The notes under the pieces: generated by a model
Database searches by the model: none
What the model was told of the DNA's origin: nothing
What the model saw: only the letters and a program-made list of their open reading frames with translations
Shown: positions 6,091 to 60,241 of the stretch, piece by piece
Position numbering within the stretch: the stretch's first letter is position 1
Layout of the letters: each line of letters opens with the position of its first letter
Made by a program: the position numbers and the translations under genes
Source: a virus
Strand: one strand, 5' to 3'
Length of the DNA stretch: 64,000 nt
IMG/VR virus record: IMGVR_UViG_3300045988_147517
Span: 55,186 to 119,185 of that record

Positions 6091-6165
6091 TGGTGCGGGG
6101 ACTGGGAATCGAACCCAGTTTTCAGGCGTATAAGACCCGCGCACTAACCGATGTACTATCCCCGT
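6091..6165 (-). tRNA. tRNA-Ile (anticodon UAU), CCA encoded
   Basis: Hand-folded cloverleaf: U8, A14, GG in the D loop, anticodon loop CUUAUAC, T arm CTGGG-TTCGATT-CCCAG, 3' ACCA. Position 1:72 is an A-C mismatch. Confidence 0.75.
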
Positions 6166-6198: not shown

Positions 6199-6227
6199 AT
6201 TATAACATACTGTTGGCGCTTTGTCAA
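6199..6227 (-). promoter_or_regulatory. sigma-A type promoter upstream of the tRNA
   Basis: -35 TTGACA is rc of 6222-6227; 17-nt spacer; -10 TATAAT is rc of 6199-6204. Confidence 0.6.
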
Positions 6228-6863: not shown

Positions 6864-8129
6864 TCATTCGCCTTTCATATCATCAAAATTCCAAGCACCA
6901 TAGGCCGGAGTGGATTCAAAAATACCTTCTGGATACTTTTCACCATCTGCAAGTGGAACAATTTTATCAATATATATTTCATTAAATAAAATTCCTGTTT
7001 TATTTAACGCACTAAATGGAGATATATTCATATCGGCTCGTTTATTAACATGCATAAATACAAAAGCCCTGTCTTTGTTACAAGAATATGTTGAATGTGG
7101 CGCGCCAATGATAGAACTCCCATATATGTTATTATAATATTCTCCCTCTTTATATTCAAATGAATTATCATAAAATGATACGTATTTATCCCCATCAATC
7201 TTCACATATTTCACAAATCTTAATGGGAAATTACAAGGTACTTGTTTTTCAATAGCATTGAGTCTTTTTATCATTATATCCCTTTTCGCGCTATCATTAA
7301 AAAAATAAGAACTGTAAAAATTATCGTCGAATAGGACAAACCTTTCCATTATATTGTCATTTTCTACTGTCCAATATATCTGTTTTCCCAAACAATATGA
7401 GACCAATAAATTATAGTTAATACAATATTTTGTGAAAAAATTTATACAATTAGATTGTCCTTGTTTTTCTTCAAATAATTCCATTGCCCTATTAATATCG
7501 AATGGCTCATCCCGAATTTCTTCAAAAATATCTTCCGATTCTTCACCATACATTCCGCCTATTTGCTCAGATAAGGCATCATAACTTTCGATATTTACAT
7601 TTTTCATAGACAATCCTATTTTATATAACGTTGATGTGGGAATACTATATCCTCTCTGCCTGTATTTTTCCATACGTTTTAAAGATGTAAGCGGATAAGG
7701 TGTCTTTACATTATAATTTAGGCATCGTTTAAGATTATCTGCAATAAAATTATCATCTACGATAAATTTATCTTCATCAAAATCATATAGCCCCATATTA
7801 ATAGTAAAATCAAAACTTTCAAAAATACTTTGTGGAGTAGGATACGCCTTTAAAGTAACCACTTGCACCATCTTATTGCCTCCACAATAATCTTTAAAAC
7901 TGATAGCCCTTTTAGAACACACTCTAAAATTCCCACTAGCCCATGATGACCTTAAAAAAGACTCCATATCTTTTTCTGTTTTAAAATATACATCATAGTC
8001 ATTAATCTCGTTTCCAGTATAAACAGAAGTAATAGCGCCACCAGCAATCATTGCATGGTTCAGTTTTAATAAATCATATAAATCGTCACTCATTTCATCA
8101 AATAGAACTTCTTTTTTATCTTTACTCAT
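6864..8129 (-). CDS. hypothetical protein with a Pol-beta-like nucleotidyltransferase signature
   Basis: IAGGAITSVYTGNEINDYDVYF fits hG[GS]-x9-13-DhDh. Start moved to ATG 8129 (GGAGGAA RBS) from track start 8201. Confidence 0.45.
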   Translation of the reverse strand: MSKDKKEVLFDEMSDDLYDLLKLNHAMIAGGAITSVYTGNEINDYDVYFKTEKDMESFLRSSWASGNFRVCSKRAISFKDYCGGNKMVQVVTLKAYPTPQSIFESFDFTINMGLYDFDEDKFIVDDNFIADNLKRCLNYNVKTPYPLTSLKRMEKYRQRGYSIPTSTLYKIGLSMKNVNIESYDALSEQIGGMYGEESEDIFEEIRDEPFDINRAMELFEEKQGQSNCINFFTKYCINYNLLVSYCLGKQIYWTVENDNIMERFVLFDDNFYSSYFFNDSAKRDIMIKRLNAIEKQVPCNFPLRFVKYVKIDGDKYVSFYDNSFEYKEGEYYNNIYGSSIIGAPHSTYSCNKDRAFVFMHVNKRADMNISPFSALNKTGILFNEIYIDKIVPLADGEKYPEGIFESTPAYGAWNFDDMKGE

Positions 8130-9093
8130 CTGCGAGTTCCTCCTCGTCCCCTTCGCACCAAAGGATACTACTTGTAATTTCATCTTGGTAATTTTTATCA
8201 ACCATCTGTACGTAGCGCATCGTCATTTCAACGCTTTGATGCCCTAACATCGTTTGAATATTTTTCACATTCGTACCATGAACAGATTGTAAAGTGGCGG
8301 CAGTACTTCTTAATTTGTGGGGTGTGATATCTTTGGTGATTCCAGCGCGTTCACATACCCGCTTTAATTCTTTTGAAACATTTCTACCATCTACTTTGCC
8401 ACCAGATGTCGATGTAAAAAGATAATTATTATTCCCAGACATGCGTTCTGTTGGAACAATTCTTTCGCCATCTCGATATACGGGGTAACCAAACCTATCA
8501 AGCACTACTTCACCATTTTGTTTAACAATTTCTTTTCTACCGATATAATCATTAATATATCTCTTACATACCCAGTTAATTGGGATATAGCGAAGTTCAT
8601 TACGTTTTGCTTTGCGAATATTAATGCGGCTCTTTTCAAAGTCCACATCTTCTAATTTTAAATCAGTCACTTCGCTAATACGCATTCCTGTATTAATCAT
8701 CAGGTAAAATATTGCCTTTTGGCGCTTTGTTCTACAATTCTTAATAAGTAGTTTTGCTTCACTTTCAGTTAAATAAGTCATTGGTTTAGGTTGAGTTTTA
8801 CGAGAACTAACATGAATATCATGGTCAATATAACCCTCACCATATAAAAAATGAATAAATTTTAACACTGGCGCGGTGTAAGTATTAATTGTGCTATCCG
8901 TAAGTCCATCCTCATCAAGCATAATCCTATATTCTTGAATGTCCTTTTTCTTCAGTGTCTCAATCTGAGTAAAATTCTTAATCCCCATACGGTCGAAAAA
9001 TTTGTTTAAATTTTTTTCATATTCAAAAAGAGTCTTATCAGCGGCACCATCAGCTTTTAAATCCTGAAGAAACAACTTGACTTCTAACATCAT
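8122..9093 (-). CDS. tyrosine recombinase / integrase (XerC/D-like)
   Basis: GMRISEV (Arg), HKLRSTAAT (HxxR), LGHQSVEMTMRYV (His...Tyr). Confidence 0.85.
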   Translation of the reverse strand: MMLEVKLFLQDLKADGAADKTLFEYEKNLNKFFDRMGIKNFTQIETLKKKDIQEYRIMLDEDGLTDSTINTYTAPVLKFIHFLYGEGYIDHDIHVSSRKTQPKPMTYLTESEAKLLIKNCRTKRQKAIFYLMINTGMRISEVTDLKLEDVDFEKSRINIRKAKRNELRYIPINWVCKRYINDYIGRKEIVKQNGEVVLDRFGYPVYRDGERIVPTERMSGNNNYLFTSTSGGKVDGRNVSKELKRVCERAGITKDITPHKLRSTAATLQSVHGTNVKNIQTMLGHQSVEMTMRYVQMVDKNYQDEITSSILWCEGDEEELADE

Positions 9094-9771: not shown

Positions 9772-10899
9772 TTAATTATAACGTTTGTAAATCAATTTTT
9801 TATTTTTTGCATACTTTTTCAAAAACTCTACTTCATTCTCATTTGGCTCTCTATTATAATATCCTCTCACTTGATTTAAAGTGCCATCACGAATCTCAAT
9901 AGTGACTAGCGGCTTTTCTGGGTTAGCTTTTTCTCTTAGGAAAACAATGCTCGTTTTACCGTCAATAACATCATCAATATAAGAAGATACACAGTGCACT
10001 AATTGAGAACCTTCTTCTTTAATTTCATCTGTACTTTCTGGATATTTTACCATATACGCGCCATAACTATACTCAAGATTTTTATCAATACGCTGTTCGA
10101 ATAATTCTTCTTTATACTTTTTCTTATAGTTATTATAGGAAATGGTAGTAATGTCATGAACTGATTTTAAAAATTTTGGGTATTTTTCAAATTTCTTTCC
10201 TTCTGGAAGAATTGTCGTTTTCATTTTTAAATAATCAGAAAGCATAACAACTGCATCCATAAACATAATGTTTTCATAGCGCGGTAGATACCAGAACAGA
10301 TAGTCAATTAGACTTTTGTATTCATAATTATATTTCCTTACCATATTTGAAAATGAACAGAAAATATTTTTTGTATACCCACCAAGTACAAATACACTTA
10401 CAAGGTGAAAATCATTTTCATCTTTCCCATATTTACTGTCTATGTAGCGCAATACATTGAAACATAACGATTCATCATACTCTACAATATCTTCAAATGG
10501 AGTAAGTAAATGTATATCATGTTTTGATAGTATTTTTAAAATATCTTTTGGGTAATAAGATGTTGGATTATGGATATGTATATCTACATCAATATTTAAT
10601 AGAAAATAATTTTCAAGATTAGAATGCCTACGCAGTCTTTCTAAAAATGTACCCATATTACTGCACTCATTATAATATGTGCTTATTTTATTTATGAGTT
10701 TTGCATAAGCTATATTGTCATCTTTTAGTTCTTCTAATACATTTTCAATGGGGATATTTGTAAAATATTTATTTAATGATTTTACAGGATTCCACTTTTT
10801 ATTATAGTAGCGCCAACATTCCCCCGTTGATAAATCAAACTGTGCTAACTTACCATCAATTTCAAACTTTAGAAATTTACCTTCCTTTTTACATTTCAA
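9772..10899 (-). CDS. PcfJ-like protein
   Basis: C-terminal EGSQLVHCVSSYIDDVIDGKTSIVFLR...TIEIRDGTLNQVRGYYN resembles the PcfJ domain; TTG start 9 nt after AGGAGA. Confidence 0.6.
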   Translation of the reverse strand: MKCKKEGKFLKFEIDGKLAQFDLSTGECWRYYNKKWNPVKSLNKYFTNIPIENVLEELKDDNIAYAKLINKISTYYNECSNMGTFLERLRRHSNLENYFLLNIDVDIHIHNPTSYYPKDILKILSKHDIHLLTPFEDIVEYDESLCFNVLRYIDSKYGKDENDFHLVSVFVLGGYTKNIFCSFSNMVRKYNYEYKSLIDYLFWYLPRYENIMFMDAVVMLSDYLKMKTTILPEGKKFEKYPKFLKSVHDITTISYNNYKKKYKEELFEQRIDKNLEYSYGAYMVKYPESTDEIKEEGSQLVHCVSSYIDDVIDGKTSIVFLREKANPEKPLVTIEIRDGTLNQVRGYYNREPNENEVEFLKKYAKNKKLIYKRYN

Positions 10900-13365: not shown

Positions 13366-13394
13366 ATTATACACATTTTGAATACATTTGTCAA
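13366..13394 (-). promoter_or_regulatory. sigma-A type promoter (cassette)
   Basis: -35 TTGACA is rc of 13389-13394; 17-nt spacer; TGTATAAT is rc of 13366-13373. Confidence 0.75.
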
Positions 13395-13414: not shown

Positions 13415-13450
13415 AAAAAAAATAAAAAAAAGGATAATTCGTTTATCCTT
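13415..13450 (-). terminator. rho-independent terminator
   Basis: Stem AAGGATAA/TTATCCTT (13430-13437 / 13443-13450) plus a long T-run on the minus strand. Confidence 0.65.
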
Positions 13451-13709
13451 TTAAACAAATTACCCTATAAATTCTTTTTCCATGGGCATCATCTTTAATA
13501 ACAAATATGTTTAGTCCCCTCTTAACATTTTCAATTTGTTTCAAATTTTCTTTATCCTTTAAAAAATCAATAATATCGCTGTCTGTTAGGTCACAATAAT
13601 GCATTTTAATAAAGTTATAGTTTAAATTTTTATTATTAAATACACCTATGTATGCCACACACTTAAATATAATTAGTTTTATCAAATAATTATCATATTT
13701 AATATTCAT
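13443..13709 (-). CDS. hypothetical protein
   Basis: 88-aa ORF. Confidence 0.6.
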   Translation of the reverse strand: MNIKYDNYLIKLIIFKCVAYIGVFNNKNLNYNFIKMHYCDLTDSDIIDFLKDKENLKQIENVKRGLNIFVIKDDAHGKRIYRVICLKG

Positions 13710-13811
13710 TTTTTCTGTTTCTTATTTCCTCTTTAATCGATTTAATTAATAAATACCCTAAAGTTAAAAGAATTATATTAGCATTAAAAAATATTATAAA
13801 TATTTCTACCA

Positions 13812-14204
13812 TTAGTCAATATCTCCATCTTCCATGGAAGATGTTCTAGAAATATAATAAATCTTTTTATCTTCGTCATGGATTTCAACATTTACATTTT
13901 CTAAGGTTGCCGCGCCAATGATATGTTCAAAATAATCATCATAAAAATTTATGTATATTCCATCTTTATATAGCTGTCCAATTTTTTGCGCAATCATTTC
14001 TGCTCTTAATTTTGAATATGTTCTCATAAATTTGTTGTAATTATCTAACTCTGAGATAATCTCTCTTTCTCTTCCTGAATCTTCAACTACAATATACTTT
14101 AAATAATATTTCTTTTTATATTTAACCGCACCAATACAATAAACAAGAATGGTATTTTCACTTTTTCTAATTTTATTTAATTCTTTTCTACTATAAACTT
14201 TCAT
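13812..14204 (-). CDS. hypothetical protein, last large gene of the ARH operon
   Basis: ATG 14204 overlaps the ARH stop (TAATG); the track offers a GTG start at 14216. Confidence 0.6.
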   Translation of the reverse strand: MKVYSRKELNKIRKSENTILVYCIGAVKYKKKYYLKYIVVEDSGREREIISELDNYNKFMRTYSKLRAEMIAQKIGQLYKDGIYINFYDDYFEHIIGAATLENVNVEIHDEDKKIYYISRTSSMEDGDID

Positions 14205-15052
14205 TATCCTAAACACCTTTTAATAATATCCTTACCTCTCAATTTATTAATCCATTCGATGGGAATATTTTCATATCCATAAATTAACCCGGCCAAACCA
14301 CCAGCCAAAGCGGCAATAGTATCGGTATCGCCACCTAAATTAACAGCCGTTAGCACACAATCTTTATAATTGTTAGTGTTTACCACACACCAAAGCGCCG
14401 CTTCTAATGTATGAACTACAAATGGAGTTGATTTAATATCGTCTTTTGAAATTTCTTTTAATTTGTTTAATCTGTCATAAGGCTCATCAAAATTATCTCC
14501 ATCTAACGTGGCTATCTCTATACCATCATTTAACAAACTGACTACATAACTATATATTTGACACGCCTTAATTGAAAGATTATGAGCATGTGTCAGACTG
14601 GCCAGTGTTTCAATTTGTTTATAACTTTTATAATAAGGCGATAATGCTAGAGGTAAAATACGCATTAAAGCGCCATTACCATTAGCCGTAAATCTATTAT
14701 CCCCACAACTGCTATAGTGGGAACCATTTTTATATCGCTCAATGGCTCTAGAGGTTATCCCTCCTACATCAAATTTGTACCCATCTACTGTAAAAGCGCC
14801 ATCATCATACCATTTTACAAAATTATTCATAATATCATCATAATCGATTTTTCGCCGTCTTTTCATAGATTCACACGTCGCTAGAATCAAACTGGTATCA
14901 TCTGACCATGTTCCCGCTGGTTGATTGTGAGTGCCATATCCTATCATGTCGTTGCACTCTGGCGCTATCATAGATTCGTATGGGACACCCAAAGCGTCCC
15001 CTATTGCGAAACCATAAATCGCATTTTTTAAATTACTCATAACATTCCCCAT
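14204..15052 (-). CDS. ADP-ribosylglycohydrolase (ARH/DraG family)
   Basis: FAIGDALGVPYE, WSDDTSL and GGDTDTIAALAGGLAG motifs; alternative start at 15040. Confidence 0.85.
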   Translation of the reverse strand: MGNVMSNLKNAIYGFAIGDALGVPYESMIAPECNDMIGYGTHNQPAGTWSDDTSLILATCESMKRRRKIDYDDIMNNFVKWYDDGAFTVDGYKFDVGGITSRAIERYKNGSHYSSCGDNRFTANGNGALMRILPLALSPYYKSYKQIETLASLTHAHNLSIKACQIYSYVVSLLNDGIEIATLDGDNFDEPYDRLNKLKEISKDDIKSTPFVVHTLEAALWCVVNTNNYKDCVLTAVNLGGDTDTIAALAGGLAGLIYGYENIPIEWINKLRGKDIIKRCLG

Positions 15053-15212
15053 CTATATACATTAATTCTTCCATTAATTCATCACACATAATTGACCAAA
15101 GCAAAGCATTGTCTATATCTTCTCTTAGAATAGCCTCTCTTTCCGCTTCTCTTGCATAATCTAAATGATATAATATACTTTCATAATAACTAGAATTCAT
15201 AAAATCAAACAT
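15033..15212 (-). CDS. small hypothetical protein
   Basis: Start moved to ATG 15212 (AGAGGTG RBS; TAAAATG junction with the upstream stop). Confidence 0.5.
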   Translation of the reverse strand: MFDFMNSSYYESILYHLDYAREAEREAILREDIDNALLWSIMCDELMEELMYIDGECYE

Positions 15213-15213
15213 T

Positions 15214-15588
15214 TTACACCTCTTTAATATTTTCAACTTTATTTTCTTCTATTTTCTGCACAAACAACGAGCCGTCTTTTCTCATGATGATTTCTTCGTC
15301 CCAATTATCACTCATTTTATTCTGTTCGCTAAGATGTTCTTTAAAATATTCCACGCAAGCATCATAAGATTCAAGTAAAGCATATTCTGCTAAGTGGTTT
15401 CCGTTTAGTATTAAAAATTTAGTGGGCTCTACACCATTAATGCGAACAAGAGCAGTAGTGTCACTTCCATAATCTGAGATTGAACAATTGTTATAACTTA
15501 CATAACAACCCTTTTCAGTCAATGCGAAAGTATCATTCGGTGAAAAAATAGGCACTCCATTGTAAAATTCCATTTGTCCAGTTAACAT
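15214..15588 (-). CDS. hypothetical protein
   Basis: 124-aa ORF. Confidence 0.6.
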   Translation of the reverse strand: MLTGQMEFYNGVPIFSPNDTFALTEKGCYVSYNNCSISDYGSDTTALVRINGVEPTKFLILNGNHLAEYALLESYDACVEYFKEHLSEQNKMSDNWDEEIIMRKDGSLFVQKIEENKVENIKEV

Positions 15589-15609
15589 CTTCCTAACCTC
15601 ATTTCATTT

Positions 15610-15897
15610 TTAGACATTTTCGATACAATAATAGTAACGTTCAATTTCAATATAACCATATTCTTCAAGTGTTTCACAAAAATTTAAATACCGCCATCTT
15701 TTATAATCGTCATAATCATAAAAACCATTTGCGCCATATTCATCAATGTAATCGTGATATTCTTCTACTAAACAATAGCTCTCATTGCAATAGTCAAGAA
15801 TGTCTCCATAGAAGTTTTCTTTACTTAATTCAATTTTTTCTAACGTTTCTTTATCCTGCCGATAACACTTTAATTCTTGTGATTTTTTCATTTTCAT
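15610..15897 (-). CDS. hypothetical acidic Tyr-rich protein
   Basis: 95-aa ORF directly behind the conserved leader and GAGG RBS. Confidence 0.6.
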   Translation of the reverse strand: MKMKKSQELKCYRQDKETLEKIELSKENFYGDILDYCNESYCLVEEYHDYIDEYGANGFYDYDDYKRWRYLNFCETLEEYGYIEIERYYYCIENV

Positions 15898-15926
15898 AAC
15901 CTCATTTCATTTCTTATTATGGTTAT

Positions 15927-15955
15927 ATTATACACCATATATATTTACTTGTCAA
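15927..15955 (-). promoter_or_regulatory. sigma-A type promoter of the ARH operon
   Basis: -35 TTGACA is rc of 15950-15955; 17-nt spacer; TGTATAAT is rc of 15927-15934. Confidence 0.75.
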
Positions 15956-17699: not shown

Positions 17700-17728
17700 A
17701 TTATACACCATGTACTTTTGCTTGTCAA
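17700..17728 (-). promoter_or_regulatory. sigma-A type promoter (cassette)
   Basis: -35 TTGACA is rc of 17723-17728; 17-nt spacer; TGTATAAT is rc of 17700-17707. Confidence 0.75.
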
Positions 17729-21816: not shown

Positions 21817-22071
21817 TTACCATGTTACAACTACTAAATTATTGTTGTATTCGAAATAGTTATAATCTATCAATAATTCTTCTCCCAGGGATTCCCAGTC
21901 AACATAAGGCCTTACACATTCTGGAACATCTTTTTCAATTTTTTCCATGGCATAATCTTCAACACTGTCGTAAATTTCTACAGAATTGCAATTTATTAAT
22001 TCTACAGCTTCCTCTTCATCGATAACCAATTCTTCCATTAATTCCTTGATTAAGCTTTCATCGTATAACAT
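21817..22071 (-). CDS. small acidic protein, possibly ArdA-C-terminal-like
   Basis: 84 aa, very acidic. The VRPYVDWESLGEELLIDYNYFEY tail is reminiscent of ArdA-type antirestriction proteins; this is weak and from memory. Confidence 0.5.
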   Translation of the reverse strand: MLYDESLIKELMEELVIDEEEAVELINCNSVEIYDSVEDYAMEKIEKDVPECVRPYVDWESLGEELLIDYNYFEYNNNLVVVTW

Positions 22072-28086: not shown

Positions 28087-28115
28087 TTGACATTTAATTA
28101 AATCTGTGCTATAAT
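28087..28115 (+). promoter_or_regulatory. sigma-A type promoter opening the rightward arm (divergent from 28036-28064)
   Basis: TTGACA at 28087-28092; 17-nt spacer; TGcTATAAT ending at 28115. Confidence 0.75.
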
Positions 28116-28744: not shown

Positions 28745-30691
28745 ATGAAGAATCGACAATTTTATATAGTAAAACTAAATAGTTCTGATTTAAAGTATTT
28801 CAAATATACTTTAGAGGGGGATTTTGATATTTTTAAAAAGCGCGACCAGATAGCCGCGGTGGCAGATAGTCAGACATTAAGGTTGATTAGAGAACTTACA
28901 AATAAAGATGTAGACTTGGAAGAGATTGAGAAGTTATACAAAAAAAGAGATTGGCTCAAAAAACAGGAGAGCACACAGGCCGCTTCAAATGAAATTGCTT
29001 TTTTGCAACGTAAGATTAATAACGCTATGTTTATTCCAGAATATGTCACAGTCACCATGAGTGGAAATAAACAATATGAGTATTTGTTCGAAAAAGGATT
29101 TGAGCTTATTATAGATGGTAGGCGCATTCATTATAAGCGATTGTCATGTTCGGCAGGGCAGGCTCGTGTTTCTACTGTTGTATTCTGTGATAGTAATATT
29201 ATTGATGAATTGGAGCGTCGATTAAACAACGGACGTGATATGAACTTTAAGATAGCGCCATCTAAATTCAATGCATACTTTGGATTATATACTTCCGCAA
29301 CTAAAGTAGTTAGCGAGCCTAACTTTTGTGTTGTGCCAGACTATGAAAATAATTTGGATGTAGAGGTAAATTATGTAACTGAAACGGATTATGATTCGGA
29401 CGATTTAATTGATACGCGAACCGTCAACTTAGGGTTTAACCGAACTGATGGGATGGGGCTAATAAATTATGAACGCGCCTCTAAATGGGCAGAAGAGTTA
29501 GGGCTAGATTATGTTCCGGCCCAATTTTGCATACGACAATCATTTATTAAGGGAATGTTGTGCACCTTTCCCATTCAAGAGTTTTGTGAGCTTGTTAATT
29601 ATGGTAATTATATCACAAAAGATATTTATGGCGCTGAAATAGATTTGAGGGACTATGATGTTATTTTAACGGAGAGCCAATTTAAATTGTGGGGTGCTTA
29701 TCCAAATCTTGATTATTACAAAGAATGTTGCCATAAAAATAATCTTAAATGGGGTGTAGCTATTTATACCCCTAAGCATGATAAAGATATTATCAAGATG
29801 AACTATCAATTTCTACAAACATTAGATTTATCAGACGAAGATATTGAAAATTTATGCTCAATGTTTGTTAATTGGATTCAGGGTGTAACTTGTGACAACT
29901 TAGGATACACGCTCCTCTATTTAATTGGAGAGGGTAAAACTGAAGAAGAAGTTCGGGCCTACATGCGTAGCCCGGATAACTATTGGATTAAATCTTTAAT
30001 TATGGAGCCGGAGTTAATTAAAGATAGGTATATCAAACAGAAGATATATCGCCTAATTAAAAAGCGCATTCAAGACGGTTGCCTAGGAGAGATTATTTTA
30101 AATGGCAACTTTCAGGTACTCGTAAGCGACCCATTTGGATTTATGCAACATGTATGCGGGTTAGAGCCAACTGGGTTACTTGGCGCTGATGAGTATTACT
30201 CTAACTATTGGAATGAGCGGGATGTAAAAGTGGTGGATGGTATGCGTTCCCCCTTGACATATCGCTCCGAACATGTTAAAATGAAGTTAGTGAGAAACAG
30301 CCGTATAGATTATTGGTATCGTTATATGTATACGGGCGTTGTTCTTAATTACCATGGACACGATGTAATGTGTTTTGGTGGCGCGGATTTTGATTATGAT
30401 ATTTTAGCCACTACTGATTGTCCAGAGGTGGTTAATGGTATATATCCAAATGAGTTACCTGTCTATTATGAGCCACCCAAACCAGCGAAGATAGTGCCTA
30501 CAAAAGAGGATTTGTTTAAATCAGACACATTCAGTTTTGGTTCTATCATTGGTAGCATTACAAATAAAGGTTCTAGCGGATATGCATTACTTTCCGACAT
30601 TGAATATATGTATGGGAAGAATAGTATAGAGTATGTTACTACGCTAAATAGATTAAAAATGTCTTGCAAGTTACAGAGCGCGCAAATTGAT
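28745..30691 (+). CDS. YonO/RdRP-like single-subunit RNA polymerase, exon 1
   Basis: VVDGMRSPLTYRSEH ... FGGADFDYDIL resembles the RnPxxHpgD ... GGDxDGD catalytic-barrel signature of QDE-1/RDR/YonO-type polymerases. The exon ends ...SAQID at a U, followed by an in-frame TAA at the start of the intron. Confidence 0.65.
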
Positions 30692-30965
30692 TAATGTTGG
30701 TCACTTCATAGGGAAACCTATGTCGAAACGTGGTGAACACTCAGAGAGTGGGTATACATATATTGTATGCTATCGGGGAAAGCTAAAGCCATAAGGTATG
30801 CCAATCCCGAGCCGAACACCTATTGGAGGTGGAGGTGTAACGACTATCCGCAAGGAGTAGCGCCATAGCGATATGGTGGCGAAGTGCCACGCCCCTAACG
30901 TAAAGCCGAGGGTGAAGATATAGTCTAGTCCCCTAACAAATATCGGGAAACCGAGGGTATGAACG
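30692..30965 (+). mobile_element. group I intron (274 nt, no ORF)
   Basis: Contains the canonical core GAAGATATAGTC and AACGACTATCCG; ends in G. Splicing joins ...SAQID to KAKIGREVKG... in frame. Confidence 0.75.
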
Positions 30966-32749: not shown

Positions 32750-32778
32750 TTGACATCAGTGTTAAGACATGCTATAAT
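32750..32778 (+). promoter_or_regulatory. sigma-A type promoter upstream of the tRNA pair
   Basis: TTGACA at 32750-32755; 17-nt spacer; TGcTATAAT ending at 32778. Confidence 0.75.
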
Positions 32779-32946: not shown

Positions 32947-33022
32947 TGGGGTATAGCCAAGTCGGTAAGGCACCAGACTTTGACTCTGGGATGCGTAGGT
33001 TCGAGTCCTTCTGCCCCAGCCA
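32947..33022 (+). tRNA. tRNA-Gln (anticodon UUG), CCA encoded
   Basis: Acceptor TGGGGTA/TGCCCCA, anticodon arm CCAGA-CTTTGAC-TCTGG, T loop TTCGAGT, 3' GCCA. Confidence 0.8.
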
Positions 33023-33196: not shown

Positions 33197-33270
33197 GCCA
33201 CTATAGCATAACGGTAGTGCGAATGATTTGTAATCATTTTATCGGGGTTCGACTCCTCGTAGTGGCTCCA
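33197..33270 (+). tRNA. tRNA-Thr (anticodon UGU), CCA encoded
   Basis: Acceptor GCCACTA/TAGTGGC, anticodon arm AATGA-TTTGTAA-TCATT, T loop TTCGACT, 3' TCCA. Confidence 0.8.
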
Positions 33271-33470: not shown

Positions 33471-35006
33471 ATGTTTATTGAAAATTTACGAAATACTTTA
33501 AATGATGAAAAACAACTGACAGAGAATGGCGCTTTAGGGTATAAGACCAGCGGGCATAAGCTTGTTGATTTAAACTTTAGAGCTTCTACACTTCGGTATG
33601 AAGAAGATGAAAAAATCAAAAGTGCGTTTCTAGACGCTTTTGCACAAGAGCCAGAAATGGCAGTTAAGTGGTTATTCTTTGCGAGAGATATTCGTGAGGG
33701 TATGGGAGAACGTAGAGTGTTTAGAGTTATCATTCAACACCTGTGTAATTCTTATCCCGACCAAATGTGTGAAATTTTGGAATACATTCCAGAGTATGGG
33801 AGATGGGACGATTTAATTTATATCATTAAGAGAAGAGTTCCTGATAAAATTTTCAACAAGGTAGTTGGTATCATTGTAAATCAATTACGTGAAGATATGG
33901 AAAATGCATTAAATGGCAAAAACATTTCGCTTCTTGCTAAATGGATGCCAAGTGAAAAGTCCCATAATAAAGAAGCGCGCAATGTAGCCTACAAGGCTAT
34001 GAGTTTTCTTGGATTAACTCCTAGGAATTATCGTAAGATGATTTCTGGATTAAGGAAAACTCTTGATGTGGTAGAGCGTAAAATGAGTGCAAATGAATGG
34101 TCGTTTATTAATTATTCATCCGTTCCTTCAAATGCGAATTTGAAATACAGGAATGCATTCAATAGACATGACCATGAAAGATATAATGACTTCTTAACGA
34201 AAGTATTGACAAAAGAAGCTAAAATGAATTCTTCAACATTGTATCCTCATGAAATTGTTAAAAAATATAGAAGTGACGATATGTGGGAGGTTAGTTATTT
34301 CCCCGAATTTGAACCTGATTTAGAGGCATTGTGGAAATCCTTACCACGAGACAACTCTCTTAAGGATACAATTGTTGTTAGTGATGGCAGTGGCAGTATG
34401 TATACTACTGCGTATGGCGTTCAACCAATTGATGTTGCACAAGCACTTGCTATTTATTTTTCAGAAACCTGTCAGGGAGAATTTAAGGATAAATATATCA
34501 CGTTCAGCCAAACACCACAGTTAGTAGATTTTGGTAAGGCAGAGAATTTATTAGATAAGTTAAAAATTATTGATAAATATAACGAGGTTGCTAATACAGA
34601 TATCGAAGCTGTGTTTGACTTAATCCTAAAAGTCGCTACAGATGCTCATATGGCGCAGGAGGAAATTCCTAAGAATATCCTAATCATTAGCGATATGGAG
34701 TTTGATAGCGCTACATCTGCTCCGTTTTTTAGTGATGAACCATCAAGAGTGAATAAAACGTTATTTGATAGTATCTCTGAAAAATATCATAATGCTGGAT
34801 ATGAAATGCCAAAATTAATTTTCTGGAATGTGTTATCGAGAACCAATACCATTCCATTAAAGGAAAATGATTTGGGGGTGGCGCTATTAAGCGGATATTC
34901 TCCGGTTATTGCAGATATGATTATGTCGGGTAGGTTAGACCCATATAGCATTTTAATTGAAAAATTAAATAGCGAAAGATATAAAGATATTAAATTTAAA
35001 TTATAA
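33471..35006 (+). CDS. DUF2828-like / von Willebrand A (vWA) domain protein
   Basis: N-terminal TENGALGYKTSG...FFARDIREGMGERRVF; MIDAS-type VVSDGSGSM in the C-terminal half. Confidence 0.6.
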   Translation: MFIENLRNTLNDEKQLTENGALGYKTSGHKLVDLNFRASTLRYEEDEKIKSAFLDAFAQEPEMAVKWLFFARDIREGMGERRVFRVIIQHLCNSYPDQMCEILEYIPEYGRWDDLIYIIKRRVPDKIFNKVVGIIVNQLREDMENALNGKNISLLAKWMPSEKSHNKEARNVAYKAMSFLGLTPRNYRKMISGLRKTLDVVERKMSANEWSFINYSSVPSNANLKYRNAFNRHDHERYNDFLTKVLTKEAKMNSSTLYPHEIVKKYRSDDMWEVSYFPEFEPDLEALWKSLPRDNSLKDTIVVSDGSGSMYTTAYGVQPIDVAQALAIYFSETCQGEFKDKYITFSQTPQLVDFGKAENLLDKLKIIDKYNEVANTDIEAVFDLILKVATDAHMAQEEIPKNILIISDMEFDSATSAPFFSDEPSRVNKTLFDSISEKYHNAGYEMPKLIFWNVLSRTNTIPLKENDLGVALLSGYSPVIADMIMSGRLDPYSILIEKLNSERYKDIKFKL

Positions 35007-38137: not shown

Positions 38138-39142
38138 ATGGGAAGAAGCGTAATAAAAGCGCCAGAAGAAATGTTCACCTGTATCGAATGTAATGAGAAA
38201 AAGCGAAAAGCTGATTTCTATAAATCATATCATCCAGATAGCAAGGACGGGATAATTCCTTATTGTAAAGAATGCTCTCGTAAAAAATGTTCGGATGAAA
38301 AAGGTAGAGTAGTTAAAGAGAAGTTAATGAACTTCCTTAAGGATGAAAATGTTAATAAGCCATTTATAGAAGAAGTGTGGAATATTAGTGTTTCTGATAA
38401 AAGAGAAACGCTTGGCATATATATGCGTAACCTAGCTTTAACAAAGTACAGAGATATGGGTTGGAGTGACGGAGAAACAAATGCGTACACTGGCGGTTTA
38501 ACAATAGATGATTTAGATGGAAGTTATCATAGTACGGATTTTGAAGTAACACCAGAAATTATGAAAATGTTTGGTGAAGGGTATTCAGAAATGGAATATA
38601 AAGTCATGTATGATAAATATGATAAACTAAGTCCGTTTTATGCAATGCCTACTCCATTCCATCGGGAAGCTTTAATGAATTACGTTAGGGCAAAAGCAAA
38701 AGAGGAAGTTGCTATTACCCAGAATAGAATGACTGATGCTAAGTTTTGGGGCGATATTGCTCGTCAAGCGGCAAAGGATGCTAACATAAATCCTAGCCAG
38801 CTAAGAGAGCAGGATACAAAAGATGGTTTAAATAGCTTTTCTAAGATATATGAAGAAGTGGAACGTGCTGTTGACATCGTTCCAATATTACCAAAATTCA
38901 AACACCGCCCAGCGGATTCAGCAGATTTTATTATTTATACCGAGGCTCTTTATGTAAGAGATTTATTAGGAATGCCGCCATGTTCTTATGAGGATGTTTA
39001 TTCGTTCTATGATAGAGCGGTAAATTCTTATCTGGAACGATATGGTGATAAATATGGTATTTTTACAGATGACCCAACTATGGAAAATAGGCCAAGAATA
39101 CGAGCATTTCTAGATGAATGTAAGGATATCGTAGATGGCTAG
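38138..39142 (+). CDS. zinc-finger protein, possible small terminase subunit (by position only)
   Basis: CIECNEKK...CKECSRKK; overlaps the start of the large terminase gene. Confidence 0.35.
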   Translation: MGRSVIKAPEEMFTCIECNEKKRKADFYKSYHPDSKDGIIPYCKECSRKKCSDEKGRVVKEKLMNFLKDENVNKPFIEEVWNISVSDKRETLGIYMRNLALTKYRDMGWSDGETNAYTGGLTIDDLDGSYHSTDFEVTPEIMKMFGEGYSEMEYKVMYDKYDKLSPFYAMPTPFHREALMNYVRAKAKEEVAITQNRMTDAKFWGDIARQAAKDANINPSQLREQDTKDGLNSFSKIYEEVERAVDIVPILPKFKHRPADSADFIIYTEALYVRDLLGMPPCSYEDVYSFYDRAVNSYLERYGDKYGIFTDDPTMENRPRIRAFLDECKDIVDG

Positions 39143-42100
39143 TTATAACAATTTTAGTCAAGCTGTTCAGCGGGAACACCAAAGGCGCGCTGGTCTGTTA
39201 GGTGAAGTTAACACAGTAAAATTTAAAAGTGATGGTATGCAGGATTCTTTTGATAGAAATTTAGATAAATGGATTTATTTTTCGTCATGGAGTCGCTGGT
39301 ACCCAGATTTGTTTTTAGATTTAATTCACCCTAGTGACGGTGGTATTGTATTAGATTTAGACCAAAGAGTATTCCTAAGAAGCATATTAAGATTTGTGAG
39401 TGTATACGGAGTGTACCCCCGTGCATATGGAAAATGCGAAAGCTTGAATAGTTATTTGTATACCGACAAAGGAATGTTACAGCTCTCAGATTTTATTGAT
39501 AGCAAATATGAATATCATGCATCTGATTTCGACACAGTCAATAAATATGGTGAAATGGAGCATACCTACTTGGCCACATATAATGGGTATAAACCAACAC
39601 TTAAGATTAAGACGAAGTATGGGTATGATAATGAATGCACAGATAATCACAGGCTTATGGTTATGGAAGAAGATGGGAATCTCGCTTGGAAATATGCTAG
39701 AGATATTAGAGTTGGAGATTATATATGTGTAAATCGTCATAATAATATATGGGGAAATTTAACAGATATATCTTATGCTACAAATAATCTTTGTGAAAAT
39801 ATTTCTAAGTTATGTAATAAATATAACTTTATCACTGAGAATACACCAGATTTTTCTTATTTAATAGGGTTATTAGTTGGGGATGGCAACACAACACTTA
39901 AATCACAAATTACCTTAACATCGGCTGATAGTGAAATTTCAGATTTCTTTATTAAGTATGTTAAAGATAATTTTTCTTATGATGTTCAAAAATATGGAAA
40001 GTATGAATATAAAATCTATTCGACTTATTTAAGAAAATGTCTATATAATTTGGGCATAAAATATGATACGTCTCATACAAAGGAGATTCCGAGATTTATC
40101 CGACAATCACCAAAAGAATGCTGTAGAGGTTTTTTACAGGGGTTATTTGACACTGATGGTGGTGTAGAGCAAAAAATTGTTTCATATGCTACTACTAGCG
40201 AAGAACTTAGTAGGCAAGTACAATTAATGTTATTGAATTTTGGAATTATTTCTAAAAGAGTATTTTGTGACAGAGGTGAGTTTAATCATTGGCGCATTTA
40301 TATAATGGGAGAGAATGTTAATATTTTCTATAGCAATATCGGATTTAGGTTAAGTAGGAAGCAGGAACAACTTAGGTCGATATTAAAACCTGTTAATGAA
40401 ATAAATACGAACACAAATTATATACCATACCAGAAAGACAATGTAAATGACTTCTTTGAATATATTAAGAAAAAAGGAGAGCATAATTCTCAAATATTTG
40501 ATAAATTTTATCATGTAAGAAAAGGAAATAATGAACTAACATATAACAAAGCTACCATTTTATTGGATGAATTCCACTCTTTTAAAGATTGCGGAGACGC
40601 TCCACAATTATTTGGTATAATAGAAAGAGATTATTTTTATACTCCTGTTGTTGGAATTGAAAATTCTGTTGCGGAAACAGGGGATATAAATATGCCGGAC
40701 ACTAATTCATGGATATGTAATGGAGTTGTATCTCATAATACCTTTATAGAAGTTTTATCCTTATTCTTAATATGTATGTTTTATCCGAATATCGAAGTAG
40801 CTATGACCGCACAAACTCAAGCGAATGCGGCTAAGATGCTAAAAGATAAGTATAATGAAATCATACGATATTGGCCTATATTAAAAGATGAAATAAGTGG
40901 ACGGCCAAGTTTCAACAAAGATACTGCCGAGATAAGGTTTGTCAATGGCTCTATTATGAATGTATTGGCGAATAACCAAAACAGTAAAGGGCAGAGACGT
41001 AAAAGAATTAATATTGAAGAGTCTGCGCTACTTGACAACGTAGTGTTCGACGATGCTTTAAAGCCAATTGTTGACTTCCCACGATATACTGTTGGTAAAT
41101 TGGCCATGGTTAATCCAGAAGAAATCAGCCAGAGAATTGATTTCTTCACGACAGCGGGTTTTCGTGGTTCAGATGAACACAACCGAAGCATTAATATGGT
41201 GGAAGGTATGGCAAATAATTCTGGCGAGTTTGTTACTGGCGCTGATTGGAAGTTGGCCGCATGGTATGGCCGTGGTACAACCGTTGAGCAAATGGCTCAG
41301 AGAAGAAAATCTAGCTCCTCCATATCTTTTGCTCAGAACTATGAAAGTAGATGGGTTGGTGCTTCTGAGAATCAGTTAGTTGACATCAACAGATTGTTAT
41401 CGTGTAGAAACTTATCATTACCAGAATTTGAACGGGAAGATGATAACGATGAGTATGTATTTGGCATTGACGTTGCTCGTTCTCAAAAAGATGACAATAA
41501 TAGAAGTTCAGTATCCATATTAAAGATTATTAGACATTCTAACAATTCGGTAAAAGAGATAAGACTGGTTAATCTTATTATTATTCCAAATGCTTACACA
41601 TTTACAGCACAAGCCATAGAGATAAAGAGGCTCTATAATGTCTTTAGGCCAAAAATGTGCGTTATAGATGTTAACGGTTTGGGCGTTGGGCTTAAAGATG
41701 AACTTCTAAAAACCCAGATAGACCCGGGCACAGGTGAGAGTTTGGTTGCATGGGATACAATCAATACTGGTGATGAATCTGAGGTTGTTGGCGCTGAGCA
41801 ATGTTTATATGGATTATATCCTCAGCAGGCTCAAAGCAAAATTACAGTTACATTTATGGATATTGTAAGTAGTGGCAAGTTACGTTTGTTAGAACTTAAA
41901 GATGATTCTTCTTTAGATTTATTCTCTAAGGATGATGTTTTGGCGTATGCGCCATTCAAACAAACTGATGAACTGGTTAATGAGATTATTAACCTTAAGG
42001 TAAAATATAATAATAACGGTTCTCTTGGGATTGAACGTGTTGTTAATAATATTGATAAGGATAGATATACATCCTTAGCATATGGTGTATGGTGGATTAT

Positions 42101-42221
42101 GGAATTTGATAATCAAGCTAATAGCGAAGATGGCACGATGTCACAATTCTTTAAGAAAGTTAATAGGAATGCTATAACTGGTGGTTCGCCTACACGTTTA
42201 ATAAAAAAAATATTTCGCTAA
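39135..42221 (+). CDS. terL: terminase large subunit precursor (contains an intein)
   Basis: Walker A YPRAYGK/T is split by the intein. Downstream ATPase region and RNaseH-like nuclease (VFGIDVARS). Confidence 0.8.
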   Translation: MASYNNFSQAVQREHQRRAGLLGEVNTVKFKSDGMQDSFDRNLDKWIYFSSWSRWYPDLFLDLIHPSDGGIVLDLDQRVFLRSILRFVSVYGVYPRAYGKCESLNSYLYTDKGMLQLSDFIDSKYEYHASDFDTVNKYGEMEHTYLATYNGYKPTLKIKTKYGYDNECTDNHRLMVMEEDGNLAWKYARDIRVGDYICVNRHNNIWGNLTDISYATNNLCENISKLCNKYNFITENTPDFSYLIGLLVGDGNTTLKSQITLTSADSEISDFFIKYVKDNFSYDVQKYGKYEYKIYSTYLRKCLYNLGIKYDTSHTKEIPRFIRQSPKECCRGFLQGLFDTDGGVEQKIVSYATTSEELSRQVQLMLLNFGIISKRVFCDRGEFNHWRIYIMGENVNIFYSNIGFRLSRKQEQLRSILKPVNEINTNTNYIPYQKDNVNDFFEYIKKKGEHNSQIFDKFYHVRKGNNELTYNKATILLDEFHSFKDCGDAPQLFGIIERDYFYTPVVGIENSVAETGDINMPDTNSWICNGVVSHNTFIEVLSLFLICMFYPNIEVAMTAQTQANAAKMLKDKYNEIIRYWPILKDEISGRPSFNKDTAEIRFVNGSIMNVLANNQNSKGQRRKRINIEESALLDNVVFDDALKPIVDFPRYTVGKLAMVNPEEISQRIDFFTTAGFRGSDEHNRSINMVEGMANNSGEFVTGADWKLAAWYGRGTTVEQMAQRRKSSSSISFAQNYESRWVGASENQLVDINRLLSCRNLSLPEFEREDDNDEYVFGIDVARSQKDDNNRSSVSILKIIRHSNNSVKEIRLVNLIIIPNAYTFTAQAIEIKRLYNVFRPKMCVIDVNGLGVGLKDELLKTQIDPGTGESLVAWDTINTGDESEVVGAEQCLYGLYPQQAQSKITVTFMDIVSSGKLRLLELKDDSSLDLFSKDDVLAYAPFKQTDELVNEIINLKVKYNNNGSLGIERVVNNIDKDRYTSLAYGVWWIMEFDNQANSEDGTMSQFFKKVNRNAITGGSPTRLIKKIFR
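39435..40739 (+). mobile_element. intein with LAGLIDADG homing-endonuclease domain (435 aa)
   Basis: Starts with Cys (CESLNSYLYTDKG); block B TDNHRLMV; LIGLLVGDGN and LQGLFDTDGG; ends VVSHN followed by Thr +1. Confidence 0.8.
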
Positions 42222-54110: not shown

Positions 54111-55187
54111 ATGGCTGGAAGATATGTTGGAGAAGCGTTAGTATCTGTTGCTGATGTAAAAATGCTGGATACAAAAACCGGAGTTGAAATCGGTGAAGCT
54201 ATTGCTCTGACAAGTTCAGGTATTGAATCGACTACTCAAAATGTTGAAGTTAGTGGTGGTTTCTTAAACTCCCTGCTTTTCGATATTCGTTTTGGTAGAC
54301 GTGTAAACCTGACTCTTGAAAGTGCAACATTTAAAATGGAATACTTGGCGTTTCAAACAGGTACAGTTATCAGCAGAGCAGTACGTAATGTATATGAATT
54401 TAATGATTGTCAAACAGCGGCAACTGAAACACTTACATTAAAACATACTCCTACTGATAAAGTACACGTTGTTTATGATGATGGTAACGTAGAAGATTTA
54501 AGCGCCACTGCTAATACTATTACTATTCCTACAAAATATGTAGGAACTCAGGTAATGGCAAGTTACTACTATGGTGGTGAATTTGAAAACATCACCGTTG
54601 ATGCAACCACCGAACCTATGACTGTTACACTTTTAATGAATATTAGAAGTAGAAAACAAAATGGTACTACAGGGACTTATCAAGTTTCTATTCCATTATT
54701 TAAGTTTGATGGTAACTTTAACTTAACATTTACATCAGACGGTGTTTCTGCTATGTCTATTGCTGGTAGTTCTCTTGCTTATACTCAGGATTGTGGTAAG
54801 ATGAAATATTGCGACTGGACATATATTCCTGATGACCCAGATACTTATGTACCAGCAGAAATTATTGCTGTACCAAGCAAGTATTCACTCTCAGTTGGAC
54901 AGAAAGTTACCCCATACGTTGTTGGTGTACGTAATCCACCTTACGCAAATGTTACATTGACTGAAAATCTAACTTTTGCTACTGACCATAGTGAAATTGC
55001 AGATGTATCTACTCCGGGTGGTGTTATTACAGCGGTTGCTCCGGGCAACGCAGTTATCACTGTAACCTATACACCTCCTGTTGCAGGAGAAGACCCAAGA
55101 ATTACTACAATTGCAGTTACTGTTGCTGGCGCTTCAAGTGCTAGTGAAGTTGGCTTAGCAAAAGTAGGAGAAGCGAAAGTTAAATAA
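54111..55187 (+). CDS. major tail (tube) protein with C-terminal Ig-like (Big_2-type) domain
   Basis: Position; C-terminal ...LSVGQKVTPYVVG...ADVSTPGGVITAVAPGNAVITVTY is a typical Big_2 pattern. Confidence 0.55.
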   Translation: MAGRYVGEALVSVADVKMLDTKTGVEIGEAIALTSSGIESTTQNVEVSGGFLNSLLFDIRFGRRVNLTLESATFKMEYLAFQTGTVISRAVRNVYEFNDCQTAATETLTLKHTPTDKVHVVYDDGNVEDLSATANTITIPTKYVGTQVMASYYYGGEFENITVDATTEPMTVTLLMNIRSRKQNGTTGTYQVSIPLFKFDGNFNLTFTSDGVSAMSIAGSSLAYTQDCGKMKYCDWTYIPDDPDTYVPAEIIAVPSKYSLSVGQKVTPYVVGVRNPPYANVTLTENLTFATDHSEIADVSTPGGVITAVAPGNAVITVTYTPPVAGEDPRITTIAVTVAGASSASEVGLAKVGEAKVK

Positions 55188-59179: not shown

Positions 59180-59938
59180 ATGGCTATAAGTAGAGAGTAT
59201 AAGGTTAAGATAAAGGCTACTGTTGACCCTAGTGAAATTTCTAAACAAATAGAGGCCTTAAGTAAAAATAGTAAAATAAAATTTGATACTGGCGGTATTG
59301 ATGCGGTTGGTAAAAGTGTTGGAAATACGAGCAAACAAGTTAAAGGATTAGGAACTCTAGTAGATGGAGTGTTTGGAAAATTTAACTTATGGTATGGAAT
59401 TGCTCAACTTTCTCACCAAATCTATAGTGCAATTGGAGACGTTGTAACCAATACGATAAAACTAGATACTGCAATGACAGGTTTAGCAAAAGTAAGCGAT
59501 ATGTCAAAACAGGATTTAACAGCGTTTGCTAAATCTGCTGGCGAAGCAGGGGTTGAAATAGGAAAAACAACAACTCAGATGATTGACGCGGCTACAGTGT
59601 TTGCACAGGCTGGATGGAGTGACCCGGGCGAATTGCAACAACTCGCCACTATGGCTGGTATGTTTACTAATATCGCAGACACTCAGACGAGTACGGCAGA
59701 ATCCGCAGAATTTTTAATTGCTACTATGAAGGCATTTAATTTGACAGCCGATGACACAGAGCATATTATTGATGCGGTTAATGAAGTATCAAATAAATAC
59801 GCAGTAAGTTCGGGTGACCTTGCATCATCTGTTGGTAGAGTTGCTTCTACACTTGCTATTTCTGGTACAACGCTAGAACAGACCTTAGGGTTAATGACCG
59901 GGGCGACAGAGATTGTCAGAAATCCGGGAAAAGTGGCT
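59180..59938 (+). CDS. tail tape measure protein, exon 1
   Basis: Typical TMP N-terminal region; ends ...RNPGKVA, followed by an in-frame TAA at the start of the intron. Confidence 0.7.
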
Positions 59939-60241
59939 TAATTTTAGGTCGGATATATGGTAACATATATTCAAAAACACTCTAATTGACGGGAAACCCC
60001 TTAGAGCTTTATCAACCAACCTATGATGGTGACATACATAGGGGCTTGACGTAATGGTTAAGGTATGGTAAAATAGATAAAGATTGGGCAATCCGCAACC
60101 AAGCATCTCAATGAGATGAAGGCTCAACGACTATCCGAGAGGAGTACATATCAAGTGATGTGGAAATGGGTGTCCCCTCACATGAGGGTGAAGATATAGT
60201 CTAGTCCCCTAACAAATATCGGGAAACCGAGGGTAGAAACG
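59939..60241 (+). mobile_element. group I intron (303 nt, no ORF), paralogue of 30692-30965
   Basis: A 52-nt block at 60184-60235 is identical to 30908-30959 (GAGGGTGAAGATATAGTCTAGTCCCCTAACAAATATCGGGAAACCGAGGGTA). It shares AACGACTATCCG, the 5' TAAT start and the 3' AACG end. Confidence 0.75.

Follow-up and report, generated by a model that had tools for sequence, protein, structure and literature searches.

An orphan ADP-ribosylhydrolase gene of an SPbeta-like phage as a possible counter-measure against foreign ADP-ribosyltransferases

The archetypal enzyme for removing ADP-ribose from arginine is DraG, a housekeeping regulator that nitrogen fixers have together with DraT. Tri1 of Serratia proteamaculans is reportedly the immunity protein to Tre1, a transferase of the type VI secretion system, and is said to remove arginine-linked ADP-ribose enzymatically, including that added by non-cognate transferases. 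In phages, ADP-ribosylhydrolase (ARH) domains have been treated as rare and uncharacterised, and macromolecular conjugates are their predicted substrates (PMC9503650). That phages erase ADP-ribosylation is established for DNA, where NADAR and macrodomain enzymes act against DarT: AdfN, an orphan NADAR antitoxin-like enzyme of T4-like phages, was shown experimentally to erase the DNA ADP-ribosylation made by DarT1 (PMC11825919). In the literature searched, no report of such erasure was found for proteins or for the ARH fold, and no experimental study of an ARH-fold anti-defence protein was found. RyDEP is a phage glycosidase which degrades cyclic ADP-ribose (cADPR) signals and feeds NARP1 (bioRxiv 10.64898/2026.05.28.727677); the biochemistry of NARP1 itself was worked out from an SPbeta-like phage (bioRxiv 10.1101/2024.02.11.579819). 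Here we describe an ARH gene lying in 64,000 nt of viral DNA, positions 55,186 to 119,185 of IMG/VR record IMGVR_UViG_3300045988_147517. This whole stretch is called the window, and coordinates refer to it. The element is an SPbeta-like temperate phage of a low-GC host, with a genome of about 119 kb, and its ARH is an orphan, no transferase partner having been found in the lineage.

The protein is a full-length member of its family. It matched Pfam ADP_ribosyl_GH (PF03747) over profile positions 2-285 of 287 (E 6.3e-63, 213.6 bits for a cut-off of 26.2), as well as PHROG 6572 (E 6.5e-69); PF03747 was its only Pfam match, neither a NADAR nor a macrodomain fold being detected. Sequence search of the PDB aligned it end to end with Lmo0067 (8za7, E 2.8e-57, residues 10-280) and with Tri1 (6dre, E 3.2e-44, residues 6-275, metal and catalytic motifs in register), followed by a Thermus ARH (E 1.2e-34) and DraG (2WOC, 9e-25; 3G9D, 2e-20). 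The match to ARH3, which is of the serine/poly(ADP-ribose) type, was restricted to 45 C-terminal residues in the GGDTDT region (E ~1e-11). When the ARH was aligned with 28 relatives, 59 of 59 invariant columns were kept. Invariant residues GDALG-D15, E22, S46-D47-D48, D91, N120-G123, T150-H151 and D238-T239-D240-T241 are all present, and the family motifs GDALG...E, SDD(T/S)S, FD(V/I)G, TH and GGDTDT align with those of 8ZA7, 6DRE and 2CWC. The full ARH/DraG signature announced by the original prediction is therefore real, and the dead active site that this prediction had named as grounds for rejecting it is not what the alignment reveals. Comparison with a sister phage gave a ratio of nonsynonymous to synonymous substitution rates (dN/dS) of 0.16 over 837 nt, at a dS of 0.45: the gene is under purifying selection. 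It is about 50% identical to all relatives outside its own lineage and sits on a long branch of a distance tree, joining neither the transferase-linked nor the bacterial group. Residues 22-25, beside the active site, read E-S-M-I where the consensus has E-F-K-x-R-G, a lineage-specific difference common to the window and sister ARHs.

These comparisons predict a catalytically competent, metal-dependent enzyme of the DraG/Tri1/Lmo0067 type. Its most likely substrate would be ADP-ribosyl-arginine on proteins, which we favour over DNA, RNA and cADPR because of the homology to DraG and Tri1, and because the clade is almost constantly paired with ExE-type protein transferases, as described below.

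No such partner was found in this phage. None of the 83 open reading frames (ORFs) of the window belonged to a transferase Pfam family; a custom hidden Markov model (HMM) of the partner transferases, run over all six frames of the window, gave a best E of 1.4; and a tblastn search of the window with MuF-transferase proteins returned no match. The 56.7 kb of the genome missing from the window were rebuilt from a sister contig of IMG/VR, which joins the two window ends at 91% and 98.6% identity. Over this sister remainder the best E of the custom HMM was 0.35, no transferase was present among the 25 of 37 Pfam families listed, and a PDB search with 20 unassigned ORFs yielded no transferase. A cognate transferase of the kind that defines the Tri1-Tre1, DraG-DraT and MuF-type pairs was thus detected neither in the window nor in the sister remainder.

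The situation differs among related phages. The nearest non-self homologues (50-55% identity, on metagenome contigs) are encoded in a siphophage head module, where a Phage_min_cap2+ADPrib_exo_Tox protein immediately precedes them. A scan of IMG/VR gave 304 related contigs, from which the best 80 loci were taken with 10 kb flanks and searched with a custom transferase-domain profile; 24 were too short to judge. A transferase was found at 50 of the 56 informative loci (~89%), immediately upstream of the ARH in 28 cases and ~5 kb downstream, beyond the packaging genes, in 22. The remaining six (L096, L116, L126, L128, L152 and L154), which have at least 8 kb of downstream sequence and enough upstream, had no detectable transferase and may be further orphan-ARH phages. 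The transferase domain forms the C-terminus of head-module ORFs of 720-880 aa. A pattern search recognised its R...S-x-S/T...ExE signature in 42 of the 50; of the eight left, six show it on visual inspection and two are cut at the locus end. An R-S-E signature marks arginine-specific ADP-ribosyltransferases. We equate these ORFs with the MuF polymorphic toxins of temperate phages (PMC5576092), without a confirmed MuF domain: an iterative search for the MuF N-terminal domain recovered a single IMG/VR ORF, and for this reason the partners are described as head-module ORFs with a C-terminal transferase domain. A PDB sequence search with two of them gave no match. About 50 of the IMG/VR ARH loci had been candidates for orphans and were ruled out, longer flanks showing a transferase ~5 kb downstream. 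In bacterial genomes, where the clade is present at 599 loci at least, a transferase was nearby in 4 of the best 80; neighbourhoods in Streptococcus sanguinis, Collinsella, Peptoniphilus and Bacillus timonensis had no common theme.

The ARH is the fourth gene of a unit which lies entirely on the minus strand and comprises, from promoter to terminator:

15927..15955, minus strand: sigma-A type promoter, TTGACA-17 nt-TATAAT, 12/12 match, with an A-tract 5' of the -35
15610..15897, minus strand: gene 1, acidic 95 aa protein, isoelectric point (pI) 4.4; 93 aa from the second ATG at 15891, the start used in public contigs
15214..15588, minus strand: gene 2, ORF for an acidic 124 aa protein, part of a swappable cassette
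15033..15212, minus strand: gene 3, ORF for a very acidic 59 aa protein, pI 4.05, in the same cassette as gene 2
14204..15040, minus strand: gene 4, ADP-ribosylhydrolase (ARH), 278 aa, or 282 aa if translation began at the upstream ATG at 15052
13812..14204, minus strand: gene 5, 130 aa protein, its start overlapping the ARH stop (TAATG)
13699..13812, minus strand: gene 6, ORF for a hydrophobic 37 aa peptide, called in public contigs L002, L003 and L012, its start overlapping the gene 5 stop
13443..13709, minus strand: gene 7, ORF for a basic 88 aa protein, pI 9.2, called in public contigs, overlapping gene 6 by 11 nt
13431..13466, minus strand: terminator-like hairpin with a T-run, the first one 3' of the promoter, overlapping the gene 7 stop

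A consensus promoter upstream, a terminator downstream and co-oriented, closely packed genes between them are what is expected of a sigma-A unit. The leader of ~30 nt carries a GAGG Shine-Dalgarno sequence and, like the flanks of the promoter, is common to its sister promoters. Gene 2 follows gene 1 after 21 nt, with its own Shine-Dalgarno sequence, and gene 3 follows gene 2 after 1 nt; from there on the genes overlap, by 8 nt (59 aa gene to ARH), 1 nt (ARH to 130 aa gene), 1 nt (130 to 37 aa gene) and 11 nt (37 to 88 aa gene). The consensus promoter ahead of the unit and the tight coupling of the ARH to four small genes had both been foreseen. The five-gene operon ending at 13812 was right as to its genes and their packing and too short by two, the 37 and 88 aa ORFs that follow. 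Public gene calls on identical contigs give the same seven genes with the ARH starting at 15040, and taken with the seven ORFs and the hairpin they indicate that the observation is real and the unit longer than described. The 278 aa form of the ARH is on public record (P0001, 100% identical); exact look-up of the 282 aa form in public records gave no match. Gene 6 is a probable membrane peptide. After the hairpin the next promoter stands at 13394..13366 (minus strand). No terminator was found between the upstream operon and the promoter at 15955..15927, so that read-through from the promoter at 17728 is possible. We infer that the unit is expressed early.

The unit belongs to an arm of the genome with many such promoters. 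Perfect TTGACA-17 nt-TATAAT sites occur 15 times in the window for 0.04 expected, 13 of them on the minus strand between 845 and 23086 and two on the plus strand (28087-28115 and 32750-32778). The 13 minus-strand promoters have A-tract upstream elements, mostly a GTG before the -10, and near-identical leaders of ~30 nt. As several perfect promoters stand directly 3' of terminator hairpins, the arm is a chain of short, strong units for the host polymerase. Three homologues of anti-defence genes lie in the same host-polymerase-transcribed arm as the ARH:

6864..8201, minus strand: Gad2 homologue (anti-Gabija), 86% identical to a sister protein annotated PF26128
2561..2767, minus strand: T7 gp5.9-like RecBCD inhibitor (PF25708)
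21817..22071, minus strand: ArdA-like fragment of 84 aa, matching the C-terminal part of ArdA at 27.5 bits for a cut-off of 27

The assignment to SPbeta-like phages draws on the YonO-type single-subunit RNA polymerase (28745..30694, plus strand), which is 56% identical to that of Bacillus phage BUCT082, the closest isolate by this protein, and has relatives in SPbeta-like and Clostridium phages. The window also encodes portal, terminase and tail genes, and several metagenomes have contigs of ~119 kb that are identical to it or nearly so; megablast matched the locus to no phage in GenBank. A tyrosine-recombinase-fold protein with an MrpR catalytic-like domain (8122..9093, minus strand) is probably the SPbeta-type master repressor and not an integrase; close to it, separated by a 188 aa ORF, lies a PcfJ-like protein (9772-10899, minus strand). 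A second Phage_integrase match was found among the ORFs of 38138-63809. The YonO-type polymerase gene stands at the switch of two divergent arms, with the perfect sigma-A promoter at 28087 just upstream.

Two of the perfect promoters, at 6227 and 32750, each have a tRNA gene just 3' (tRNA-Ile and tRNA-Gln, respectively); the three tRNA genes are Ile-TAT (6091-6165, minus), Gln-TTG (32947-33022, plus) and Thr-TGT (33197-33270, plus). Beside them a 511 aa ORF (33471-35006, plus) matches PHROG 850 ('RNA-binding protein'). The Pfam families DUF2828, DUF7788 and VWA_2, matched in the ORF set that includes 33471-35006 and not tied to one ORF, would suggest a TROVE/Ro-like protein. At the end of ORF 59180-59941 begins a group I intron (59929-60224, plus; Rfam RF00028, 65 bits), and a 190 aa ORF (60628-61200, minus) lies nearby; this may be a late gene split by the intron and accompanied by a homing endonuclease. 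A 1028 aa ORF (39135-42221, plus) has PHROG matches to terminase large subunit and to endonuclease/helicase-like proteins, and Intein_splicing and LAGLIDADG_3 matches in the scanned ORF set make a terminase intein probable. Inteins likewise split two genes of the sister genome, those for ribonucleotide reductase and Namat.

The original prediction held that the operon was built around the ARH and that its small proteins could be specificity factors or inhibitors. Comparison of related phages contradicts this. In a sister phage (L003), the pair of 124 and 59 aa genes is replaced by an unrelated gene of 137 aa, with the 93 aa, ARH, 130, 37 and 88 aa genes kept; gene 1 is 95% identical there (dN/dS 0.07), gene 6 100% and gene 7 98%. 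In the commonest relatives (L012-L014), a deletion has left a stump of 82 aa, in which 5 codons from the start of the 137 aa gene run into the final 77 of the ARH; the 130, 37 and 88 aa genes that follow are intact, and gene 5 (dN/dS 0.15) is thus kept where the ARH is lost. Exact-sequence counts were at least 114 contigs for the 82 aa remnant, ~16 for intact ARH variants and 76 for RtcB. A search with the 124 aa protein gave 183 representatives (E<=0.001) of a widespread family of small mobile-element proteins, and its homologues in other elements, at 50-70% identity, lie beside RecD2-like helicases, DNA methyltransferases or reverse transcriptases; in the neighbourhoods examined none had an ARH beside it. 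The exact sequence of the 59 aa protein was present on 4 contigs only, all of the window phage type, and all homologues found of the 130 aa protein were at 85% identity or above, none being outside the phage lineage. The six small neighbours are independent cargo, neither subunits nor specificity factors of the ARH, and the locus behaves as a hotspot of exchangeable genes and not as a system.

The small proteins themselves gave few leads. Pfam and PHROG scans of the 95, 124, 59 and 130 aa proteins yielded sub-threshold matches only (e.g. chorismate mutase, E 0.08), and the 88 aa protein matched no Pfam family at E<=0.01. The original prediction had seen no ADP-ribosyltransferase motif in its four small proteins, and the Pfam, PHROG and custom HMM scans agree. 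It had also called for structure prediction; this was done for the 124 and 130 aa proteins and brought nothing usable for function. The model of the 130 aa protein, with a predicted local distance difference test score (pLDDT) of 39, was unusable. The AlphaFold model of the 124 aa protein (pLDDT 78) matched no PDB structure at E<1, and its sole viral structure match was an uncharacterised phiRSL1 protein (E 0.002). A likeness of the 124 aa protein to repeats of giant FG-GAP/Kelch-type surface proteins was weak and gave no functional lead.

An RtcB RNA ligase gene is inserted just 5' of the promoter of the ARH unit in most relatives (L012:2194-3393, L013 and L014), at a site corresponding to ~15960 in the window, which has no RtcB. 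The presence of RtcB suggests that tRNAs cleaved by anticodon nucleases of the host are repaired, and its insertion here points to the spot as a hotspot for counter-defence cargo.

In the sister genome, outside the window, a Namat (L253:10923-13472) resembles the phage Namat structures 9W5W/9W5X of the PDB (E 1.4e-108) far more closely than it does ordinary Nampt (1e-36); an intein carrying a LAGLIDADG domain interrupts it. Beside it a divergent Prs-like protein (L252:19654-20505) is, by its similarity, a candidate Adps. An NAD synthase (NadE) and an isochorismatase-family, nicotinamidase-like protein are also encoded in the rebuilt region. The lineage thus encodes a NARP1-type pair for NAD+ reconstitution (candidate Adps plus Namat).

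The reading that fits best is that the ARH is a dispensable protein de-ADP-ribosylase of DraG/Tri1 type, carried as cargo against transferases that the phage itself does not make; it is preferred because the ARH is intact and selected, because its sigma-A unit lies among anti-defence homologues and because no cognate transferase was found. Host RNA polymerase would read the seven-gene unit from the consensus promoter, and the enzyme would strip ADP-ribose from host or phage proteins modified by a host toxin, by a host defence transferase, or by an ExE-type transferase borne on the capsid and injected by competing temperate phages. Removal of ADP-ribose would neutralise the modification, and the freed ADP-ribose, being the substrate of NARP1, could be recycled into NAD+. 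The counter-defence role suggested by the original prediction is retained in this proposal. Taken as a whole, with an orphan arginine-type ARH, foreign transferases and possible recycling, we hold this reading tentatively, as possible and a little short of probable.

Several points weigh against it. The function of the ARH is deduced by comparing sequences, for the protein and for its close relatives alike. A near-invariant Phe and Arg after the metal-binding Glu22 have gone from it, through a two-residue deletion. No defence of low-GC Gram-positive hosts that ADP-ribosylates protein arginine was identified in this analysis. Most members of the lineage lack an intact ARH, so any benefit must be conditional. 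With 25 of 37 Pfam families listed, a divergent transferase could be hidden in the rebuilt 56.7 kb, which moreover is that of a sister genome and not the window's own. Of the best 80 bacterial loci, 76 have no transferase nearby and their contexts are varied; one homologue, from Cytobacillus (53% identity), lies inside an NrtR-PnuC-NadR-ARH-Prs NAD-salvage operon, and such contexts leave room for a small-molecule role. Finally, the ARH is at least 40 kb away from the NARP1 genes.

A more specific form of the counter-measure would place the ARH in a contest between phages. Many temperate siphophages of gut Firmicutes would inject a capsid-fused, arginine-specific transferase and keep the matching ARH, and an unrelated SPbeta-like phage would have captured the ARH alone and put it behind a strong host-type promoter, to erase the marks injected by its rivals, or those of host toxins of the same class, with NARP1 rebuilding NAD+. 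We regard this chain of events as doubtful.

The ARH may instead act on small molecules, cleaving ADP-ribose (ADPR) metabolites or immune signals (2'cADPR/3'cADPR, His-ADPR, O-acetyl-ADPR), thereby blocking Thoeris-type signalling and feeding NARP1. The lineage's Namat, Prs-like candidate Adps, NadE and nicotinamidase-like protein would suit such a role, as would the Cytobacillus operon, the 76 transferase-free loci among the best 80 of bacteria, and the precedent of RyDEP, which turns cADPR signals into ADPR for NARP1 (bioRxiv 10.64898/2026.05.28.727677). However, the protein resembles the arginine-type enzymes that cleave N-glycosidic bonds, and not ARH3, which cleaves O-glycosidic ribose-ribose bonds; in phages its clade tracks protein transferases; RyDEP is found inside its NARP1 locus, which the ARH is not; relatives delete the ARH and yet keep NARP1; and Iyer et al. 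consider that phage ARH domains prefer macromolecular substrates (PMC9503650). On balance we find this alternative rather unlikely.

A benefit to the lysogen appears unlikely too, and distinctly so. Expressed from the prophage, the ARH would be an orphan immunity protein against toxins of rival bacteria, for instance those of type VII secretion (T7SS/LXG, like the Lmo0066-Lmo0067 pair), or against superinfecting phages that carry a transferase. An MrpR-like repressor and a tyrosine recombinase give the phage a temperate-like character, and the closest solved relatives are Lmo0067 and Tri1, the latter said to be an immunity protein. Likewise, the promoter is strong, of host type and without a recognisable operator, and presence of the ARH varies among otherwise near-identical phages. 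Its position argues the other way: the gene stands within a run of 13 promoters of one type driving anti-restriction, anti-RecBCD and anti-Gabija homologues, functions needed at infection, and SPbeta lytic-arm promoters are silenced by MrpR in the lysogen.

That the ARH serves as antidote or regulator for a transferase of its own phage, one that escaped detection, is improbable. The transferase found within 10 kb at 50 of the 56 informative loci of related phages is what speaks for it, together with the incomplete Pfam list of a remainder read from a sister genome. In 120 kb, however, no match to a partner transferase was obtained at E<0.3, the Pfam families listed include none, and the gene after the portal encodes only 310 aa, without a toxin extension. 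Moreover, the genotype met most often is the one in which the ARH is deleted, and with a toxic partner still present such a loss would do harm. The least likely alternative, a recently acquired passenger without a role and on its way to being lost, would account for the deletions in most of the lineage, the long branch and the ~50% identity to all other relatives, but hardly for a dN/dS of 0.16 over 837 nt at dS 0.45, the retention of all catalytic residues and the translational coupling of the gene on both sides.

If the orphan ARH does protect infection, a new enzyme class would join the anti-defence repertoire, and it would follow that in gut Firmicutes hosts or rival phages turn protein ADP-ribosylation against phages. 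Should the rivals' injected transferases be its target, it would be the first phage counter-measure of ARH fold directed at transferases, and de-ADP-ribosylation would for the first time be tied to the reconstitution of NAD+. If the ARH had no measurable effect, it would be one more variable cargo gene. The lineage offers a natural experiment, with near-identical phages that differ by the ARH deletion, the cassette swap and the RtcB insertion. The ExE transferases packaged by related phages point to a concrete class of candidate substrates, namely the proteins that they modify, and a metabolic tie of the ARH to NARP1 is possible.

Compared with known systems, the phage ARH is closest in sequence, among solved proteins, to Lmo0067 of Listeria monocytogenes (8ZA7), a chromosomal bacterial protein on which no paper was found in the literature searched, so that no function can be transferred from it. 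Tri1 (6DRE) belongs to the same ARH/DraG fold family and has all the metal and catalytic motifs, but it is encoded beside its transferase, whereas the phage gene has no transferase neighbour, and its N-terminal extension of ~65 residues, which plugs the transferase active site, is absent from the phage protein (ARH residue 6 aligns with Tri1 residue 70). DraG shares family and motifs, its regulatory role being unrelated to phage biology. The nearest phage relatives are the siphophage ARHs linked to MuF-type transferases, 44-55% identical and of similar length, which presumably have the same chemistry; in those phages the ExE transferase lies in the head module, while in the SPbeta-like window phage none was found and the ARH lies in the arm transcribed by the host polymerase. 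RyDEP is, like the proposed ARH, a hydrolase yielding linear ADP-ribose in a phage that has Adps and Namat; it differs by an unrelated fold, its place within the NARP1 locus and its cutting of O-glycosidic ribose-ribose bonds. AdfN follows the logic proposed here, that of a toxin-less antidote homologue erasing ADP-ribosylation during infection, with an unrelated NADAR fold, a DNA substrate and an activity that has been demonstrated, whereas the phage ARH is known from its sequence. Neither the family of the ARH nor the kind of genomic setting in which it lies is new.

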